From IMG/VR virus record IMGVR_UViG_2565956762_000004: a stretch of 39,628 nucleotides of DNA, one strand, 5' to 3'. The notes under the pieces were generated by a model, which had not been told where the DNA came from, searched no databases, and saw nothing but the letters and a program-made list of their open reading frames with translations. Position 1 is the first letter of the stretch. Every line of letters begins with the position of its first letter. The position numbers and the translations under genes were made by a program. The stretch is from a virus (taxonomy: Duplodnaviria > Heunggongvirae > Uroviricota > Caudoviricetes). This document shows, in pieces, positions 2,503 to 39,628 of the stretch.

Positions 2503-4392
2503 ATGAAATCCGAAACGCTAACCATCCAGCAAATTTTCCAAAATCAACGACAATATCGTGTTCCATTCTATCAACGTGCCTACGTATGGACGCAACGAAA
2601 CCAATGGTCAGCTTTGCTGGAGGATATCTTCGAAAAAGCACAGAGCCGACTTTCGGGAACAAAACCAACCCCTCATTTCCTCGGCGCGGTGGTGCTGGAA
2701 CCTCAACTCAAAAACAGCTTGTTAGGTGTAGATACCATACATATTATTGACGGCCAGCAACGTTTAACCACTCTTCAATATATTCTGGCATCCATTCGAT
2801 TATCATTGCGTGCTACAGGCCTTTCTGAACTGGAAGGGTTAGTATTGACTTGCTTGAAAAATACAAACGAAGCAACGATGAGAAATAAAAAGGTAGAATG
2901 CTTCAAACTGTGGCCAACTTTTCGAGATCAAACTCATTTTATTCAAAGTCTTAATGTTGATAATATTGACGATCTCCGTAATGTATTTTCTGATAGCTTC
3001 ACGCAACATGGTACGTTACGTAAACATTTCAACCACCCGCCGTCACTAGAGGCATTATGGTTTTTTACTGAAGCCTTTATAAAATGGATTAAAATAGAAA
3101 ACCACTCACCACAAGAAAATGCTGTAGCACTAATTGAGGCTGTCTTGACGGATCTGAAACTGGTAAGCATATTTCTCGAAGCTGAAGATGATGCCCAAAT
3201 AATTTTTGAAACATTAAATGGGCGAGGAGCGGAACTTCATGCAACGGATCTTATTCGCAACTATATCTTTATGTGCGCTGAGCATGAAAATATTAATGCT
3301 ATTGAATTATATGAAAATGAGTGGAAGATCTTTGAAGATAAATACTGGTCGGAAAAGCAACGCCGTGGACGTATTAATAAACCACGCATGGAGTGGCTTG
3401 TACATGCGACATTGCAATCAGAAAGGCAGCGTGAAATTGATCTGTCTCGCCTTTACAATGAGTATCGTGATTATGTAAGTAAGGACTTGCCTTCACAACG
3501 AGCAGATCTGCAAGTAAAGCGCCTCAAACAATATGCATCACAATATAAAGAATTGGTTGGTGGTTTTGGCACAACCCCCATCTCACACTTTGGACATCGC
3601 ATCGCAGCCTATGATGTGACGACACTCTATCCGCTTGCTTTGTTCATTTCGATAGCTAACATCGCCGATGATGAGAAAGCAGCCATGTATAATGATCTTG
3701 TCTCCTACGTAGTACGAAGATCCGTATGTGGCCTGACGCCAAAGAATTACAACAATGTATTTATGAATGTATTGCGACACTTGTCTAAAACGGAAATTTC
3801 CAGTGTTGAGTTACGTAATATCCTCAATAGCTTAAATGGCGAAGCCTCACGTTGGCCTGGGGACTCAGAATTTCTCAACGCTTGCATCAATGCTCCACTT
3901 TATCCTGGCAGGCTCGACGCACCGAAAATGCGCTCAATGTTAACGGAACTTGAAAGAGAACTTTGTCGCCAAGTGAAGACAGAAAAGCCTGATGTTCCAA
4001 ATCTTTCTAATCTCGATATCGATCATCTTATGCCTCAAAGTTGGTATTCCTGTTGGCCTCTCGAAAATGGTCATATGGTGACAAATTCAGATGCTACGGT
4101 AATGAACCAAATTGTTCTGTCTGGAACCGATCTTACCCCTGAACAGCTACTGGTAAGGAAACGGCAACAAGCGATAGCTACGTTGGGAAATCTAACTTTG
4201 CTTAACCTTAGCGTAAACCGTTCCGTTCAGAATGCTGTATTTCTGAAAAAACGTGATGCTCTCATCGTCCACACCAATCTACGACTGAACATACCACTTA
4301 TACTTAAGGATAAATGGGATGAGAGTGAAATACTGGAGCGAGGTAAAAAGTTGGGGGAAATTGCATTGAAAGTATGGCCAAAATACGATTAA
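2503..4392 (+). CDS. DUF262/DUF1524 (GmrSD-family) putative type IV modification-dependent restriction endonuclease, 629 aa
   Basis: N-terminal DGQQR motif (IIDGQQRLTTL) typical of DUF262; C-terminal DIDHLMP His-Me finger motif typical of DUF1524. GC below phage average. Confidence 0.7.
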   Translation: MKSETLTIQQIFQNQRQYRVPFYQRAYVWTQRNQWSALLEDIFEKAQSRLSGTKPTPHFLGAVVLEPQLKNSLLGVDTIHIIDGQQRLTTLQYILASIRLSLRATGLSELEGLVLTCLKNTNEATMRNKKVECFKLWPTFRDQTHFIQSLNVDNIDDLRNVFSDSFTQHGTLRKHFNHPPSLEALWFFTEAFIKWIKIENHSPQENAVALIEAVLTDLKLVSIFLEAEDDAQIIFETLNGRGAELHATDLIRNYIFMCAEHENINAIELYENEWKIFEDKYWSEKQRRGRINKPRMEWLVHATLQSERQREIDLSRLYNEYRDYVSKDLPSQRADLQVKRLKQYASQYKELVGGFGTTPISHFGHRIAAYDVTTLYPLALFISIANIADDEKAAMYNDLVSYVVRRSVCGLTPKNYNNVFMNVLRHLSKTEISSVELRNILNSLNGEASRWPGDSEFLNACINAPLYPGRLDAPKMRSMLTELERELCRQVKTEKPDVPNLSNLDIDHLMPQSWYSCWPLENGHMVTNSDATVMNQIVLSGTDLTPEQLLVRKRQQAIATLGNLTLLNLSVNRSVQNAVFLKKRDALIVHTNLRLNIPLILKDKWDESEILERGKKLGEIALKVWPKYD

Positions 4393-18779: not shown

Positions 18780-19985
18780 TTACGCCACTGCAATCTTCAG
18801 CAGTTTGATGGCCTGCGAATCGACCAGCATGCCGCCGGTGCGTTTGGTGGTATAAAAACCGACAAACGGTTTATTGGTGTACGGGTCACGCAGAATGCGG
18901 GTGCCGATACGGTCAACGATGGTGTAACCCCGTTTGAAGTTACCAAATGCAATGGCTTTCGCATCAGCGGCGATATCCGGCATCTGTTCGTTTTCAGCGA
19001 TACCGTAACCCGCCAGAGAGGACGGCTGCCCCAGCTCCAGCCCCGGACGCCACAGATAGTTACCCTCGCTGTCTTTCAGCAGACGGATGGCAAACAGGCT
19101 GTTGTTGTTCATCATGAACTTCGCACCGGTGCGGTGTGCCTTACGCAGTGTGTAAATAAGTTTGATAATGGCGTCTGCGGTCACCGCAGTCGCTTCGCCG
19201 GATACAATATGCTGAAGTTTGCCGAACGCCCGGACCTTATCGGTTTCATCAGTGGATTCATACGCCAGGAACCCTTTCGGCTTCTTGGTGCCATCGCCTG
19301 AGGTAAAGGCAATTTCTTCCTGTTCGGCAAATTCGGTTGCCAGCTCGCTGTTGATCCAGGCCTCCACGTTGAAGAAGGCATCGTCCAGCATTTTCTGGGT
19401 GGCCTGCGGGTTGCCGTAGATTTCCCCCATGAGAGGTTCAATCAGCTCCAGTTTGGAGGTGGCAGTCTGGGATCGCGTATCCGTTTCCCCCACCCATCCG
19501 GAAGCCGTGCCGCCCAGATTCACCAGTTTTTTGTAGTCGGAACCGCCAACGGTGATCACCGTGGCTTCCTAGCGCATCACCACTTCATCTTTCAGCAGGG
19601 TGAGAATGTTGCGATCCAGCGCTTCCGGCACGGCATAGCCACCGTCTTCATCGGTGCCCACCTGCAATGCCTTACGCTCCAGATCGCGCAGACCATCTTC
19701 ACGGCCTTTACGCAGGAAGCCCACAAACGCTTCTTTATGCTCGGTGGCCAGTTTATTTTGCGCACCACCTGCCGGACGTTTCAGCTCAAGCAGCTCTTTT
19801 TCAAGATCGCTTTTGAGGTTTTCCAGCTCGCTGAGTTTCCCGTTCAGGGTTTCCACCTGCCCGGCAAGTTTGCCTTTTTCCTGCTCAATCGCATCCACGC
19901 GCTTGTCGTTCTTTGCTTTGAAGTCGTCAAACTTCTGCTGCAGCTCCTGCGCGACCTGTTCGACATCTTTAATATCTACCGCCAT
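18780..19985 (-). pseudogene. HK97-family major capsid protein gene interrupted by an in-frame TAG (19569-19571)
   Basis: Upstream ORF (coiled-coil delta domain) and downstream ORF (capsid body) share one frame; read-through gives ...DEVVMR*EATVITVGG... Confidence 0.7.
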
Positions 19986-26303: not shown

Positions 26304-26426
26304 AAGTTGTGTGGCGAAGTAACCACTCATAACAGATTACAATGGTTTCTGCGGACCGCGTGAGTGATTTTATTTAATTTTTAATGTAAATTTCAGTTCC
26401 TTTTGAGTGATTACATGGAGTACATA

Positions 26427-27242
26427 ATGAAAGTGTTCATAAGTTGGTCTGGGCAAAGAAGTCAAGCTGTTGCAGAACTTATTAGCGACTGGCTGAAGTG
26501 TGTTATCCAAGCTTCGCAGCCATGGATTTCAACCAGAGATATTGATCGTGGCGCTATATGGTTCTCTGAAATTAATGATAAATTAAAAGATGTATCTGTC
26601 GGCATTGTATGTTTGACACAAGAAAATAAAAATAAACCATGGATTTTGTTTGAAACAGGAGCACTAGCAAAAGGACTTTCAACAAATAAAGTTTGTACAT
26701 TCTTGATTGACTTAAAACCAGAAGATTTAAAAGATCCACTTGCTCAATTCAATCACACAACGCCAAATAAAGAGAGTGTTTGGGAATTAGTAAGGACAAT
26801 AAACAATTGTCTTGTCGATAAATCTTTAGATGACCGTATTCTAAAGCAAGTTTTTAATACATACTGGGAGCAATTTGAAAACAATTTTAAACGAGCTTTA
26901 GATCAATACCCTCCAACTGAAGAAGTAAAACCACGTACTGAACAAGATCTTTTATCTGAAATATTACAAAACACTCGTTCATTAAATCAAAGGATTAGAG
27001 TTCTTGAACGTGATGCTACTATCAACTCCATAAATAGCCATATGAATTTAACTCCTGTAGAACAGAAGGATGTTTGGTATCTACAAAAACAGATAGATGA
27101 AATTATAAAGAATGGATTGCTTGACGAGGATGAAATAATATCATTCTTAGACAAATATGACATTCCTGAAAAAATGATTAGGAACCAAATAAAATACACA
27201 TTAAACCAACGATTATCTGAAAGTAATAAAAAAAAGAAATAA
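26427..27242 (+). CDS. TIR-like domain protein with helical C-terminal extension (start chosen at MKVFISWSG)
   Basis: KVFISWSG...W.S...I..G..W......L......GIVCLT.EN...PWILFETGA fits the bacterial TIR pattern; GGAG 6 nt before the ATG; low GC; opposite strand to neighbours. Confidence 0.6.
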   Translation: MKVFISWSGQRSQAVAELISDWLKCVIQASQPWISTRDIDRGAIWFSEINDKLKDVSVGIVCLTQENKNKPWILFETGALAKGLSTNKVCTFLIDLKPEDLKDPLAQFNHTTPNKESVWELVRTINNCLVDKSLDDRILKQVFNTYWEQFENNFKRALDQYPPTEEVKPRTEQDLLSEILQNTRSLNQRIRVLERDATINSINSHMNLTPVEQKDVWYLQKQIDEIIKNGLLDEDEIISFLDKYDIPEKMIRNQIKYTLNQRLSESNKKKK

Positions 27243-28662: not shown

Positions 28663-29460
28663 TCAATGAACGGTATCGAGCAGCTTTAACAGCTCAGGGA
28701 ATCGGGATTCGAAGAAATGCGGCTGCGTCTCGCGCGGATTTGCGGGACTGGTGATATTCTTGCCGAACATGCAGCCTTTCGCTGTCAGCGACCAGAATTT
28801 TTTGATGTTGTTAATCGCGGTACGGCTGTATCGTTCGCGCTGCTCGACGATCCCCAGCGTCACCATCTGGTGATATGCCTGATTAGCTGTCAGGCGGATA
28901 CCATACTGCTTCAGCAGTGCACTCAGTGACAGCGTGGGGCGGCTTGAGCCATCAGGCGCGTCAGCAGGAGCATCAATGGCATAGCGCGGTGCCAGATTCG
29001 GTAAGCCAACAGCCTCCTGGAGTTTCTGACAGGCACCAAGCACTGAAGAGTTAGACAGGTTTAATTCCCGGCGCATAAAGTCCAGCAGAATCACACCAGC
29101 CTGCATCTTGTCAGCAGCCTGTCCGGATAATTTTTCCGGTGCGCTGGTTACCATATCGAAAGTACGGATCACCTTCAGATGGAATGACGGGCTGATCCAC
29201 ATTGCATAGGCATACACCAGTTCTTTGCAGACATACGTCCCCTGGTTATTTCCGCCACGAATAACGTTAACTGGCTCTATATTGACTGAGTTGCAAATCT
29301 GTAACTCGCTTATTAAACGTTCAGTTTGCTCATTGCGGAGCCAGAATGCAGGCTTATGCTTATCCAGAGAACCGGCAGCCCTGTGCAGATCGTTCAGGCT
29401 GTAACGCCCATAAGCATCACGACGAACTTCAATACCATCAATTACCATCAGATTATTCAT
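28663..29460 (-). CDS. KilA-N domain protein
   Basis: N-terminal IDGIEVRRDAYGRYSLNDLHRAAG...KPAFWLRNEQTERLISEL. Confidence 0.5.
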   Translation of the reverse strand: MNNLMVIDGIEVRRDAYGRYSLNDLHRAAGSLDKHKPAFWLRNEQTERLISELQICNSVNIEPVNVIRGGNNQGTYVCKELVYAYAMWISPSFHLKVIRTFDMVTSAPEKLSGQAADKMQAGVILLDFMRRELNLSNSSVLGACQKLQEAVGLPNLAPRYAIDAPADAPDGSSRPTLSLSALLKQYGIRLTANQAYHQMVTLGIVEQRERYSRTAINNIKKFWSLTAKGCMFGKNITSPANPRETQPHFFESRFPELLKLLDTVH

Positions 29461-29479: not shown

Positions 29480-29869
29480 TCAGGCGGCTGCACCCGCCGG
29501 TTTCTCGTACTTACTGATAGTGATCTCGACCTTCCCTTCCGGGATAACCGGTCCCCACTCCACCAACATTCTTTTCACTTGGCTGTCGTCTTCCCACACA
29601 CCCGCGTGGGTCAGGGCGTCAAACAGCGCCTTGTTATAGTTGTCCAGATCGCGGATCCGGTTATCCGGAGGAAACAACACGATCTCCACTGAAGCAGGTG
29701 CCGACGTTGGTTTCGGCAGACGACGTAACTGCTCAACTATTGCTGCGCACGCTGCGCTCTGGAATTTTCGCCCCGCCGCGCTTATCAGGCTCTTACCAGC
29801 AAACGCCCCTTTGTTGGGGTGTCGCCAGTACGTGTTCACGCTGGGCGGAAAAGGCAGGATCAGCTTCAT
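29480..29869 (-). CDS. rusA: Holliday junction resolvase RusA
   Basis: N-terminus LPFPPSVNTYWR and ~129 aa size. Confidence 0.7.
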   Translation of the reverse strand: MKLILPFPPSVNTYWRHPNKGAFAGKSLISAAGRKFQSAACAAIVEQLRRLPKPTSAPASVEIVLFPPDNRIRDLDNYNKALFDALTHAGVWEDDSQVKRMLVEWGPVIPEGKVEITISKYEKPAGAAA

Positions 29870-30192
29870 ACTTTCAGGCCCCTCTCATGTAACCAGTGGG
29901 TTGCACGCAGCCTTGCGTTTTCCTCACCGGCAAGCAGTGCGCGGATAATCCCGACCGCCTCGCTGTCGTCGTCCTTCACCGCGGTATGAAGCGTTATCCC
30001 CCGGGCCACGCCACGCTTTATCGTGATGACGCCTTTTTTCTCCAGTGCGCGAAGATGCTCTACCGCTGCATTCACTGAACGGTATCCCAGCATGGTTGCC
30101 ACCTCCTGATTGGTTGGCGGAAAGCCACGCTCTTTCTGATAAGAAATCAGCATATCCAGCACCTGCTGCTGGCATTGAGTTAACGTCGTCAT
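29866..30192 (-). CDS. LexA N-terminal-domain-like winged-helix DNA-binding protein (no peptidase domain)
   Basis: LTQCQQQVLDMLISYQKERGFPPTNQEVATMLGYRSVNAAVEHLRALEKKGVI parallels the LexA DNA-binding domain; start ATG overlaps the upstream stop (ATGA). Confidence 0.5.
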   Translation of the reverse strand: MTTLTQCQQQVLDMLISYQKERGFPPTNQEVATMLGYRSVNAAVEHLRALEKKGVITIKRGVARGITLHTAVKDDDSEAVGIIRALLAGEENARLRATHWLHERGLKV

Positions 30193-30686
30193 TACGCCCC
30201 CACGTAATTCCCTGACAGATACCACTCATCACTCGATACAGCGCGCTTGCTGCTTTTCCGTAAACACAGCTCACGACGCGCCAGAAAATTGTTTCGTTCT
30301 GGCTGGGAGTGGCTTTCACGGAATGCCGCCATCCACACGGTTGCAGCACGACGGTATAAGCCCCTGGACTCCAGTTCTTCAGCCTGGCGGGTCAGGCACA
30401 AAATCACCCGTGGATCGTTAGTGCCGACATAGAAATTGCGCACAGGTCTGGTTTCTCGAACTGGTTGTGGTTCCGGTTCCTGCGCTCTCTCAGTCAGGCG
30501 CGGGAAATGTCTGCGTGTATCTCCTTCACAACGGTGAGCCACACGCCCACTCTGACGTAACTTGCTTGCAGACTGCAGAACGCGCTGCCGTGAGTAACCT
30601 GCAAAAGCATCCGCAATGTCTCCGGAAGTACACCCCGGATGGGCTTCAATGAATTTCTGAACGTCATTTAACAGACTCATGATCAC
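30192..30686 (-). CDS. PerC-family-like putative regulator
   Basis: 164 aa; weak motif match only (LYRRAATVW). Confidence 0.3.
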   Translation of the reverse strand: MIMSLLNDVQKFIEAHPGCTSGDIADAFAGYSRQRVLQSASKLRQSGRVAHRCEGDTRRHFPRLTERAQEPEPQPVRETRPVRNFYVGTNDPRVILCLTRQAEELESRGLYRRAATVWMAAFRESHSQPERNNFLARRELCLRKSSKRAVSSDEWYLSGNYVGA

Positions 30687-31633: not shown

Positions 31634-31972
31634 CTATTTCCCTGAATTTACGACGAAACTGTTCGAGCGGACTGAAGCATTCATGCTCATAACCTTCGCG
31701 GAGGTAGATAACCCGTTGTGTTTCCGGCTCCCAACGAATGACTCTGACGGGCACTCCGTAGTGATCTTTGAACCAGCGGTTAACTTGTCGCAAAGGACTG
31801 TCTCCTTCTGCCGGTTGAAATCACCCACAGCCCACTCTGCAAAGCTGTGGGTTACAATTTCCCTGTCACCTGGTACATTCACTGCATAGCAATATTCCAC
31901 CTTCGCTTTTCCACCCGGTACAGGAAGCGCAATCAGTTGCGAGCGACGGTAGTGTGTTGTTAAACTGTTCAT
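31634..31972 (-). CDS. hypothetical early protein (112 aa; size and position match e14 YmfM from memory)
   Basis: ORF between ymfL-like and initiator genes, same strand. Confidence 0.4.
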
Positions 31973-32538
31973 GCGTTAGTTTCTCCACAACCAGAAGCAA
32001 TCGACGCCACGACGCCCGGAGCTGCACACTCGCGGGCGTCATTACTTTCTGAAATGCAAAAAATTTTGTAGACAAGTGCTGCATGCTCCTGCAGCTTCGA
32101 AATTGAGAGATACAGCTCGTCGTTAATTGCTGTCTTCTCATGCGGTTCCACTACACCGTCTTCGATTGCTGAACGAATCTGTTTTGAATAACTGCCGATC
32201 TGTTCAATGACTTCCAGCAGACGCTGGTTAATATCGGCGTTGTCCACATCCTCGACGTCAGGAAGAGACACAAAGACGCCATTTGCAGACTGCGCCACAG
32301 CATCAGCAATGAAGTGAGTGCCACCAGCACGCTGTAAAACCATTGCCCATCCCAGCGGGAAAATCTGATCGCCATCTGCACGAAGGCGGTTGAATAAAGC
32401 GTTTTCTGTTACATCGAGCCAGTCAGCCGCTTCAGCGTAACCACCCGGCAACGCCGCGATAGTTTTTCTGACAGCTTTCACGTACCACTCAGGCTGTTTT
32501 TCTACTTTCCAGTGATGCTTACCCACGATTAGCCTCAT
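31969..32538 (-). CDS. hypothetical early protein (189 aa; size and position match e14 YmfL from memory)
   Basis: First large gene after cro on the rightward-equivalent operon. Confidence 0.45.
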
Positions 32539-35278: not shown

Positions 35279-36103
35279 ATGTCTCAGAACTTAGACGCAA
35301 CCGCAATTAATCAAATCCATGCTATTATTTCTGCTCAGGGTGTTAATGAAATTATCAGTAAGATTGGTGCCGATGCTGTAGCATTGCCTGAGAATTTCCG
35401 CATTCATGATCTGGAAAAATTTAATTTAAATCGCTTCCGTTTCCGTGGTGCGCTTTCCACTGCCAGCATCGATGACTTTACCCGTTATTCTAAAGATCTT
35501 GCAGATGAAGGCACCCGCTGCTTTATCGATGCTGATAATATGCGTGCCGTCAGTGTGCTTAACCTGGGTACTATTGATGAACCAGGTCACGCAGATAACA
35601 CCGCCACTCTCAAACTGAAAAAGACAGCACCGTTCTCTGCACTGTTGTCTGTTAACAGCGAGCGTAACTCCCAGAAGTCACTGGCAGAATGGATTGAAGA
35701 CTGGGCCGACTACCTTGTGGGTTTTGATGCTAATGGTGACGCTATCCAGGCAACAAAAGCGGCTGCGGCTGTCCGTAAAATCACGATTGAAGCAAACCAG
35801 ACCGCTGATTTTGAAGATAATGACTTCAGCGGCAAACGCTCCCTGATGGAGTCTGTCGAAGCGAAGACCAAAGACATTATGCCAGTGGCATTTGAATTTA
35901 AATGCGTTCCGTTTGAAGGTCTGAAAGAACGTTCTTTTAAATTACGCCTCAGCATTATCACTGGCGATCGTCCTGTACTTGTTCTGCGCATTATTCAGCT
36001 GGAGGCGGTGCAGGAAGAAATGGCTAACGAATTTCGCGATCTGCTTGTTGAGAAATTCAAAGACAGCAAAGTAGAAACCTTTATTGGTACTTTCACCGCC
36101 TGA
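35279..36103 (+). CDS. DUF2303-like early protein, 274 aa (YfdQ-like)
   Basis: Size and gene order with the following HD-domain gene match the yfdQ-yfdR pair I recall from a K-12 cryptic prophage. Confidence 0.5.
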
Positions 36104-36231
36104 TTTGATTACTGCAAATGCCCCTGCGGGGGCATTTATGGAAACGTAATTAACTCAATAATCTCCGGATGGTGAGGGCTTCCTTTTACCAGAATTCAGT
36201 GCGGTGCAGCGCAAATAACGTGGAGAACAAA

Positions 36232-36780
36232 ATGTCATTTATTAAAACTTTTTCTGGGAAGCATTTTTATTATGACAGGATAAATAAAGACGACATCGTT
36301 ATTAACGATATCGCGGTTTCCCTTTCAAATATCTGTCGCTTTGCAGGACATCTTTCACACTTCTACAGCGTCGCCCAACATGCGGTTCTTTGCAGCCAAC
36401 TGGTACCGCAGGAATTTGCTTTTGAAGCGTTAATGCATGATGCAACAGAAGCGTATTGCCAGGACATCCCCGCTCCACTGAAACGCCTTCTTCCTGACTA
36501 TAAACAGATGGAAGAAAAAATAGACGCCGTAATCCGTGAGAAATACGGGTTACCCCCGGTTATGAGTACGCCCGTGAAATATGCCGATCTCATCATGCTG
36601 GCAACCGAACGCCGCGATCTCGGGCTTGATGATGGCTCTTTCTGGCCTGTACTGGAAGGCATCCCGGCAACAGAGATGTTCAACGTGATTCCACTGGCAC
36701 CGGGCCATGCCTACGGGATGTTTATGGAACGCTTTAAAGAGCTGCATAAGATGCATAAACAATCCAGACAGCGAAATTAA
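36232..36780 (+). CDS. HD-domain phosphohydrolase (YfdR-like 5'-deoxynucleotidase), start at MSFIKTF
   Basis: H...HD metal-binding motif (AQHAV ... ALMHDATEAY). Confidence 0.6.
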   Translation: MSFIKTFSGKHFYYDRINKDDIVINDIAVSLSNICRFAGHLSHFYSVAQHAVLCSQLVPQEFAFEALMHDATEAYCQDIPAPLKRLLPDYKQMEEKIDAVIREKYGLPPVMSTPVKYADLIMLATERRDLGLDDGSFWPVLEGIPATEMFNVIPLAPGHAYGMFMERFKELHKMHKQSRQRN

Positions 36781-38196: not shown

Positions 38197-38216
38197 TACT
38201 GTATATGCATACAGAA
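38197..38216. promoter_or_regulatory. LexA (SOS) box TACTGTATATGCATACAGAA
   Basis: CTGT-N8-ACAG with A/T-rich spacer, close to consensus; between int stop and the next gene; candidate promoter TTGAAA-N17-ATAATG at 38236-38264. Confidence 0.55.
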
Positions 38217-38292
38217 TTTAAAGAAAATTAAGCTCTTGAAAGTGCTTGGTTTTATGGAATAATGAAACCAAATAGTTTACAGGAGTTTTCTT

Positions 38293-39189
38293 ATGCAGTT
38301 GTATGCCTTACGTGTGTTAATGAGACCGCGCGATCCAGACCTCTTTTCGAAAGGAGCTGTTCAGAAAGATATCTCTCATTTTGAAAATGCTATGGTTGTC
38401 GCTGCAAAAAATTTACACATGACGTCATCAACACCTTCCGTTCATAAGAAAACTAGTTACACCCTGAAATTGAGCATAAAACCTACTGATGGTGTTATGG
38501 CTGGAGTCATATCAAAGCTGCAAAAGATTAAAGGACATGATAAAGACTTTCGAGAGTACGATGTAGACAACTATCCACCTATCGTATGGATTTGGGACAA
38601 AGTAGAGCAGGTGTTACTGGTTGAGAGGAAAACCGCTGTTTTCAAGGATGCGCAACAAGTTGCTAAAGCATTCGAAGATCTAGCCAATAACGACTATTTG
38701 GCTCAGTTAGGACTTAGAATATTTATAGAGCCTTGTCTTGAAATGGAAGATTTTTGGTCAGAATACCATAGGCTTCAATTTATCGACAAAGTCAGCTTTA
38801 CGCTGATTACTCCGAATATCTTCGGAAGCAGTAAGCAAGCGTTAACCAATGATTTACGGAAGCTTGAAAAAGATACCAATGCAAATACTGTGACCACTAT
38901 TTTTGAAAACAAAGATGGCAATTTGAAACTCAAAGGTTCTCATTGGGCTGAGACTCTTGTTGACTGGGTCAAAGATGGTGGCGGGTCATGGTTGATTAAA
39001 GGACGTAAGACACTCAAGTCAAAATCTACTACGGTATCCAGTAATCAGACAGCCAAAATCGTGCTGATCGAAGGTGAGATATCAGAAATTGAACTTGATG
39101 GCTACTCAGCAAATGATATTAAAGAGATCATAGCATTACATCAAAACAGGTATACGTTCAAAAATGCAAAATCTAACTGTCTGGATTAA
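38293..39189 (+). CDS. hypothetical soluble protein, 298 aa, first gene of int-proximal cargo cassette
   Basis: AGGAG Shine-Dalgarno 7 nt before ATG; low GC; no motif recognised (no HExxH). Confidence 0.6.
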   Translation: MQLYALRVLMRPRDPDLFSKGAVQKDISHFENAMVVAAKNLHMTSSTPSVHKKTSYTLKLSIKPTDGVMAGVISKLQKIKGHDKDFREYDVDNYPPIVWIWDKVEQVLLVERKTAVFKDAQQVAKAFEDLANNDYLAQLGLRIFIEPCLEMEDFWSEYHRLQFIDKVSFTLITPNIFGSSKQALTNDLRKLEKDTNANTVTTIFENKDGNLKLKGSHWAETLVDWVKDGGGSWLIKGRKTLKSKSTTVSSNQTAKIVLIEGEISEIELDGYSANDIKEIIALHQNRYTFKNAKSNCLD

Positions 39190-39628
39190 AGCTATAGCTA
39201 CCTTCTTTTTGTGCTTAGCATTAGCATCGACTGATAAAACCATTTATACCTTACTTGAGCAGGCTTCTGCTGGAGTAATAGGTTCAATACTTGGAGGTAT
39301 TGCCGCAGGTATCTCCGTTATCTTCGGAATTTTGGCTGTCATTAATAAGGGCGAGAAAAGCACAGACTTTACGGACTATTTAGATAGTTTAGAATTAGAT
39401 TTGAAATTACTGGTCATGTGTCTGGCAGTAACAATCTTCCTTCCCTATTTACGTAATTATGACATACCACTAGTAAATTATCCTCAGCACGAATTTATCC
39501 CTTCTAAAGGCAAGCTATTTACTGCTTTAGAACTTTTTGCTATCGTGCTATCTCTTAACCTCATTGCAGAAGTGATTAGCTGCATGATTTTAGTGGTTAA
39601 AAAAAGTTTCAAAATTGAATCAAAGTGA
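39164..39628 (+). CDS. small membrane protein with about four TM helices, 154 aa
   Basis: Four hydrophobic segments; start overlaps the upstream gene by 26 nt; stop is the last codon of the window. Confidence 0.55.
   Translation: MQNLTVWIKAIATFFLCLALASTDKTIYTLLEQASAGVIGSILGGIAAGISVIFGILAVINKGEKSTDFTDYLDSLELDLKLLVMCLAVTIFLPYLRNYDIPLVNYPQHEFIPSKGKLFTALELFAIVLSLNLIAEVISCMILVVKKSFKIESK

Follow-up and report, generated by a model that had tools for sequence, protein, structure and literature searches.

LexA dimerises via its C-terminal domain, and LexA(1-84), the fragment left by its cleavage, has a ...VAA end that is reportedly recognised by ClpX. On its own, the N-terminal domain of LexA can reportedly bind SOS boxes and act as a repressor, which is why its removal by ClpXP is needed (PMC10584840). 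In the LexA(Ind-) mutants G85D and S119A (PDB 1jhf and 1jhh), which are full-length chromosomal dimers, DNA binding cannot be switched off by RecA*. The only characterised phage-encoded truncated LexA homologue is gp6 of GIL01, a tectivirus of Gram-positive (Bacillus) hosts that has no repressor of its own; gp6 is a 66-aa protein that binds GaCACAnnTGTGaC, not LexA boxes, and activates the late promoter P3 (PMC6182141).

We analysed a 39,628-nucleotide stretch of Caudoviricetes DNA (IMG/VR record IMGVR_UViG_2565956762_000004), referred to below as the window, in which a gene for a short LexA-like protein is found on the minus strand. Three features define the gene and its product.

29866..30192, minus strand: coding sequence of the LexA-like protein, 108 aa (open reading frame list and sequence; RefSeq WP_000210156.1; PHROG 362)
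29983..30192, minus strand: LexA-type winged helix-turn-helix, codons 1-70 (LexA alignment, AlphaFold, Foldseek)
29866..29982, minus strand: linker and helix-loop-helix tail, codons 71-108 plus the stop codon (AlphaFold model, family conservation)

According to the open reading frame list and the sequence, the gene begins with ATG at 30192-30190 and ends with TGA at 29868-29866. It is already known and annotated as a member of a family, and is not new as a gene. WP_000210156.1 is the RefSeq annotation of the same 327-nt coding sequence, where the product is called 'LexA family transcriptional regulator', and the query stretch is 100% identical in DNA sequence to the RefSeq genomes that annotate it. 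PHROG 362 is matched over the whole protein, tail included (residues 1-108 onto 1-106 of 106, E 1.2e-59), and in phage records the gene is named 'LexA DNA binding domain protein', 'LexA-like protein' or 'transcriptional repressor'. Full-text literature searches brought up no work on the function of the enterobacterial family, which is represented only by an entry in a catalogue table, pham 237 (pfam01726) in Stx phages (PMC8136144); the 'LexA family' proteins of another report are phage repressors of Eru phages and do not correspond to this gene (PMC8044961). The LexA-like protein is a further, uncharacterised example of phage-encoded truncated LexA homologues.

The LexA-type domain and the C-terminal tail

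In a Pfam search, the 108-aa protein matched the LexA_DNA_bind model (PF01726) over its full length (model positions 1-65 of 65, E 2.9e-19), with a score of 69 bits against a cut-off of 23.7. A gap-free alignment to E. coli LexA residues 2-70 was obtained in PDB (E 6e-16), with 34 of 69 residues identical, and identity of the domain to E. coli LexA was 49-51%. An AlphaFold model built from the single sequence was unusable (pLDDT 54), and an alignment of 36 homologues from the family was used instead. The resulting model (pLDDT 83) has five helices, with a two-strand wing between the third and the fourth. The winged-helix part is made up of helices 6-22, 28-35 and 40-52 and of wing strands 56-58 and 66-68; it was the only part of the model with significant Foldseek matches, and it superimposes on chain B of the LexA-DNA complex 3JSO (3jso_B) with an rmsd of 0.9 Å over 67 residues (51% identity). 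A first-pass annotation of the window had described a LexA winged helix running along the whole of the ~108 residues. This description needs a correction, as only residues 1 to about 70 are LexA-like.

No match to the S24 peptidase domain (PF00717) was found in the 108-aa protein by the Pfam search, and the NCBIfam lexA equivalog model TIGR00498 was matched only at positions 1-91 of 203, with a score of 70.5 bits, below its cut-off of 110.95. [quoted passage not shown] Because no domain with the catalytic Ser and Lys is present, RecA-stimulated self-cleavage cannot inactivate the protein, and the same annotation is borne out on this point too. The LexA-like protein resembles the LexA(Ind-) mutants in a predicted LexA-type DNA binding that RecA* cannot switch off; in contrast to those mutants, it is a natural domain-only product of a phage lytic operon.

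The tail (residues ~71-108) gave no significant sequence match in PDB. AlphaFold places helices at residues 75-88 and 93-103. The family, tail included, is conserved across subfamilies and genera at 40-50% identity; in the tail, A97 is invariant, A93 and L101 are nearly so, and hydrophobic residues are kept at positions 80, 83, 86, 87 and 100. With its two helices, this conserved tail of ~35 aa is not LexA-like and is specific to the LexA-like family. We infer that it supplies dimerisation and stability in place of the LexA C-terminal domain. The C-terminus of the protein reads ...GLKV.

The HMMER alignment reaches LexA residue 86 and places 'LLAGEE' of the LexA-like protein opposite 'VAAGEP' of LexA, with A88-G89 opposite A84-G85. 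In relatives, the Ala-Gly pair is replaced by AN, VG, RE or DD (ALLANEE, GLLVGEE; ERESD and DDQPG in distant members), and the segment sits in the predicted inter-helix loop. 'LLAGEE' was therefore rejected as a relic cleavage site.

Compared with the N-terminal domain of E. coli LexA and with LexA(1-84), the protein shares the fold, the level of identity given above, the four principal DNA-reading residues, K53 and R64/G65/I66. It differs from LexA(1-84) in being encoded by a separate phage gene and in having the helix-loop-helix tail in place of the linker and the S24 domain. With canonical LexA, as described by TIGR00498, it shares the winged helix, whereas the S24/dimerisation domain, the conserved Ala-Gly site and an SOS box of its own are absent. 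The likeness to GIL01 gp6 is that each is the product of a temperate-phage early gene encoding little beyond the LexA DNA-binding domain. The two proteins were aligned by hhalign with a probability of 96.5% (E 9.4e-10, 31% identity over 64 columns), while BLASTP gave no pairwise alignment between them. gp6 differs in having no tail and in the substitutions N41K, A42T and E45R relative to LexA.

Stand-alone LexA-domain proteins were frequent among predicted viral structures searched with Foldseek. Metagenomic proteins P0132, P0133, P0151, P0153, P0156 and P0159 (~140-220 aa) contain a tandem pair of LexA DNA-binding domains but lack S24; each may represent a pseudo-dimer within one chain, another answer to the loss of the dimerisation domain.

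Prophage setting, distribution and selection

The compared stretches were 100% identical to E. coli strain 1190, and on the basis of this identity and the annotation of that record we assign the window to an e14-like prophage at icd. Starting from the divergent CI-like repressor gene ymfK, the minus strand carries, in this order, cro-like ymfT, CII-like ymfL, DUF4222, a replication protein gene (HTH_36), PerC-like yfdN, the LexA-like gene, RusA, KilA-N, DUF968 and Q. The gene is located between the replication gene and the Q antiterminator gene, and its assignment to a nin-like region in the first-pass annotation was right. It overlaps the genes on both sides.

30190..30194, minus strand: TAATG overlap, in which base 30192 belongs both to the yfdN stop and to the start codon of the LexA-like gene (sequence and open reading frame coordinates)
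29866..29869, minus strand: ATGA overlap of the rusA start with the stop of the LexA-like gene (sequence and open reading frame coordinates)

The TAATG overlap suggests translational coupling of yfdN and the LexA-like gene. A consensus scan revealed no promoter-like site on the gene's strand between ~29479 and 33600, the end of the scanned stretch. Unlike autoregulated lexA, the gene has neither upstream intergenic space nor an SOS box of its own. It is part of the early-right (pR) operon and probably encodes a delayed-early product, which would not be made in the lysogen but only once the prophage has been induced or a cell infected. The proposal of the first-pass annotation that the protein holds LexA-box promoters repressed has to be changed on this point: judging from the position in the operon, repression could only be re-imposed after induction, and such promoters would not be held shut in the lysogen.

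Several other genes of the prophage deserve mention. The major capsid gene (18780-19985 of the window, minus strand) is split into two open reading frames, and the matching genome has a RefSeq pseudogene with an internal stop at this place; since the capsid gene is broken, the prophage is probably unable to make virions. A TIR-domain gene (26403-27242, plus strand), which matches the PADLOC TIR-TM model (E 1.9e-57), separates Q from the holin gene, in the opposite orientation, and is likely a defence moron of the late-promoter region. A gene for a DUF262 protein (2503-4392, plus strand) is found at the far end of the prophage, where it adjoins a recombinase fragment; its product matches the PADLOC model of a Type IV methyl-directed restriction enzyme from end to end (score 1523), and its position is roughly that of mcrA in the e14 element of K-12.

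A 1.35-kb segment with the LexA-like gene is present in 2702 of 5426 complete E. coli genomes, in at most four copies per genome, and in 51 phage records, including mEp460, SfII and Stx2a/Stx2c phages. The genes of phage relatives (mEp460 gp46, SfII_44, the SfV homologue NP_599074.1 and those of Stx2c phages) show 97% nucleotide identity. Exhaustive HMMER and profile searches recovered the domain-plus-tail family, at 40-50% identity, from prophages of Enterobacteriaceae, with hosts in the genera Citrobacter, Salmonella, Cronobacter, Kosakonia, Enterobacter, Leclercia, Atlantibacter, Cedecea, Klebsiella and Raoultella. Among the nearest full-length LexA clusters, the only organism named, in one case, is a betaproteobacterium (Jezberella).

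In Cronobacter and Enterobacter, the gene order is replication protein, (PerC), (Dam), LexA-like, RusA, Rha/Ant, DUF968 and Q, with overlapping gene boundaries, and in Enterobacter prophages the LexA-like gene comes immediately after the replication gene. A Dam methylase gene intervenes between the PerC-like and LexA-like genes of most relatives (35775-36428 in mEp460, locus L002; 32072-32725 in SfII, locus L003). In the prophage of the window, by contrast, the Dam methylase gene is cleanly absent and yfdN directly abuts the LexA-like gene, with a one-base overlap. The order in Klebsiella is dinI, a hypothetical gene, the LexA-like gene, a small open reading frame, DUF968, a 200-aa gene and lysis genes; the 200-aa gene has no Pfam match and occupies the position of Q. 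In the Klebsiella prophage loci (L004-L007; 5385-5404, 5425-6393), a consensus SOS box lies over the -10 element of dinI, two genes upstream of a 130-aa homologue, and the Klebsiella LexA-like gene may itself be SOS-induced. The recognition helix of this dinI-linked subfamily, SSSNAVLLHL, is divergent.

In comparisons with mEp460 and SfII, dN/dS was ~0.16-0.22, although each pair differed by just 2-4 non-synonymous and 3-7 synonymous substitutions. We conclude that the LexA-like gene is real, is under purifying selection and is not a remnant.

DNA-reading residues and candidate targets

The part of the protein expected to contact DNA bases is given below.

30037..30078, minus strand: recognition helix region SVNAAVEHLRALEK, codons 39-52 (LexA alignment, family tabulation, contact lists)

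A 2024 review, in its account of the LexA-DNA crystal structure, names S39, N41, A42 and E45 as the primary CTGT contacts, whose mutation alters specificity (PMC11442139), and an older contact list also includes E44 (PMC3091678); the LexA contact residues used here were taken second-hand from these two sources. All four primary readers are identical between the LexA-like protein and E. coli LexA, and the same holds for K53 and, in the wing, for R64, G65 and I66. Substitutions relative to LexA include R7C, R28N, P40V and E44V. The first-pass annotation had proposed an alignment with LexA as a check on the DNA-contacting residues. Its outcome is largely favourable, as the eight residues just listed are kept; however, E44 and R28 have been replaced, and A42 and E45 are not constant among the subfamilies.

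When residues were tabulated over 253 clusters of the family, S39 and K53 were found in all 253, G65 in 252, N41 and R64 in 251 each, I66 in 250 and A42 in 222, while position 45 was occupied by E in 169 and by D in 50. Position 44 is never Glu in these clusters (A, V, T, F, L or N are found instead), R28 is retained in none of them, and P40 is variable. A42 is altered in ~12% of the clusters, and E45 is replaced by a non-acidic residue in ~13%. The recognition helices SSSNAVLLHL of Klebsiella, mentioned above, and RSVNTIAGHL of Citrobacter are examples of divergence. The host SOS box is taken to be invariant across these Enterobacteriaceae genera. Because the four readers are kept, the E. coli subfamily probably still reads a CTGT-type half-site; because E44 and R28 are lost and A42 and E45 vary, the family taken together does not seem to be tied to the host SOS box. 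Changes in the N-terminal part of helix 3 retune the motif readout of LexA between phyla (PMC4951493).

A pattern search of the window revealed a single site of the LexA type.

38197..38216, strand unassigned: sole canonical SOS box in the window, TACTGTATATGCATACAGAA, with the core CTGT-N8-ACAG at 38199-38214 (pattern search)

The core, CTGTATATGCATACAG, is the one match found in the window, where 0.45 would be expected by chance. With a position-specific scoring matrix built from ~26 K-12 boxes, the site was the only strong box in the window and scored 20.6; the median of the known boxes used for the matrix was 20.2. The box is located between a -35-like TTGAAT and a -10-like CAGAAT, with intE upstream of it and two unannotated cargo genes downstream, and it is a candidate target of the LexA-like protein. 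The cargo open reading frames, 38293-39189 and 39164-39628 (or beyond), are AT-rich (~38-39% GC) and lie between intE and the icd attachment end; searches against Pfam, PHROG and PADLOC gave no match for these genes (38293-39628). The cassette as a whole (38197-39628) looks like SOS-induced cargo; in the e14 element of K-12, lit, ymfD and ymfE occupy its position.

The cassette with its box was found in 32 of the 5426 complete E. coli genomes, versus 2702 for the LexA-like gene. Since the cassette is far rarer than the gene, the gene did not evolve to serve it, and the link drawn in the first-pass annotation between the protein and repression of this box proves weak, and incidental at best.

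Searches for other targets gave no candidates. CTGT-Nx-ACAG was not enriched across the window at any spacing from 0 to 30, and the homologue loci of Cronobacter and Enterobacter contained no SOS-like box that reached 13 bits with the matrix. Perfect 5- and 6-mer palindromes common to the window, mEp460 and SfII yielded no candidate phage operator; the shared palindromes are uninformative, since they are mostly in regions common by descent. Intergenic inverted repeats resembled CI/Cro operators or terminators, and none was a candidate for a phage operator. If SOS boxes are bound, the targets would be mainly in the host or in other elements.

Near-perfect SOS boxes are present inside the CI repressor genes of SfII (29167-29186, TACTGTTTTTATATACAGTA) and mEp460 (31970-31989, TACTGTTTTTACATACAGTA). 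The SfII box falls in the segment that codes for the CI linker between the HTH and S24 domains (SNTVYKNSNN). The ymfK-type repressor gene of the window has no such intragenic SOS box.

Possible roles during lytic growth

We tentatively favour an explanation in which the protein is a RecA-insensitive LexA surrogate that is made in lytic growth, binds SOS-box-like sites and re-imposes repression. The protein would be absent from the lysogen and would accumulate after induction or infection. Its tail would give dimerisation and stability, and its C-terminus lacks the ...VAA end by which ClpX recognises LexA(1-84). The dimer would bind CTGT-type inverted repeats, that is, SOS boxes or close variants, and SOS-box promoters would be re-repressed once host LexA had been destroyed. 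Among the promoters affected would be those of host SOS genes and of genes that LexA controls in other mobile elements; the box at 38199-38214 would be included incidentally. Since the isolated LexA domain still represses, a stable domain-only protein is a plausible repressor, and the phenotype of LexA(Ind-) mutants is what the idea of the first-pass annotation, repression independent of LexA cleavage, predicts.

The surrogate explanation is consistent with the identity and structure of the domain, the absence of S24, the retention of the four readers, the conserved tail and the position in the operon. The conservation of gene position and overlapping boundaries in E. coli, Cronobacter and Enterobacter prophages also speaks for it, as does the comparison with gp6, which binds another motif and has changed three of the four readers, whereas the LexA-like protein has changed none. 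Other observations count against it. E44 and R28 are absent from the whole family, P40 is variable, and the changes at A42 and E45 in subfamilies would be unexpected if the host SOS box, taken as the same across Enterobacteriaceae, were the target. The geometry of a tail-mediated dimer may disfavour the N8 spacing. Neither the enrichment of CTGT-Nx-ACAG in the window nor an SOS-like box in the Cronobacter and Enterobacter loci was found. Finally, a strong SOS super-repressor would, if leaky, be costly to the host, and this cost counts against a surrogate because the gene is present in half of complete E. coli genomes. The most far-reaching form of the proposal is that the protein is a natural 'anti-SOS' factor, an uncleavable LexA mimic that is spared by ClpXP, is made early in the lytic cycle and re-occupies SOS boxes after host LexA is lost; we regard this form as rather unlikely.

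The protein may instead be a phage-specific regulator with an operator of its own, in which a retuned LexA domain, like that of gp6, activates or represses a phage promoter in lytic development. This is a serious possibility, if short of probable. It has a precedent in gp6, it agrees with the strict synteny of the gene with phage early genes, and it would account for the loss of E44 and R28 throughout the family and for the variation at A42 and E45 among subfamilies, as changes at the N-terminus of helix 3 alter the readout of LexA motifs (PMC4951493). However, the protein of the window keeps all four CTGT readers, three of which are changed in gp6; the palindrome and inverted-repeat comparisons gave no candidate phage site; and the late genes of this prophage already have the Q antiterminator.

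A DNA-binding accessory of phage replication or recombination, acting for instance by tagging DNA, or changing its shape, for the replication protein, RusA or the DUF968 nuclease, is improbable. The location of the gene between the replication protein gene and RusA/DUF968 in E. coli, Cronobacter and Enterobacter, with boundaries that overlap the neighbours, suggests such a role, but co-location in a phage early operon is weak evidence of function, the Klebsiella gene adjoins neither RusA nor a replication gene, and the retention of base-specific readers points to sequence-specific binding of an operator.

It is highly improbable that the protein is a substrate mimic or decoy, with 'LLAGEE' cut in trans by LexA or CI or competing for RecA*: the HMMER alignment does set A88-G89 opposite A84-G85, but the Ala-Gly pair is unconserved in the family, the segment is predicted as an inter-helix loop and not as an extended strand, and RecA* makes its contacts chiefly via the C-terminal domain that is missing here (PMC3159453). 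Equally hard to credit is a decaying, functionless remnant of a captured lexA gene, which is suggested by the many database entries that are frameshifted or fused fragments and by the internal stop in the capsid gene of the same prophage, but disagrees with the conservation of the full architecture, tail included, at 40-50% identity across many Enterobacteriaceae genera, with a dN/dS of ~0.2 and with the conserved overlaps with neighbouring genes.

The explanations differ in what they mean for the biology of these phages and their hosts. Should the protein act at its own operator, it would be an ordinary phage regulator of interesting ancestry and a Gram-negative counterpart of GIL01 gp6. In E. 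coli, prophage induction, Shiga-toxin release and mutagenesis are driven by SOS induction, and many toxin and defence genes of this organism are SOS-controlled. If the protein were an anti-SOS factor, host SOS functions would be shut down during phage development, together with the LexA-controlled induction of rival prophages and colicins and with SOS-induced defence or toxin cassettes, such as that at 38293-39628. With the gene in about half of complete E. coli genomes, and in Stx phages among others, this would amount to a widespread and unrecognised layer of SOS control. Re-occupation of SOS boxes by the LexA surrogate would require a revised view of induction kinetics, prophage competition and SOS-dependent antibiotic responses, and would provide a natural case of a virus that has copied, from the master repressor of its host's stress response, nothing but the part that reads DNA.
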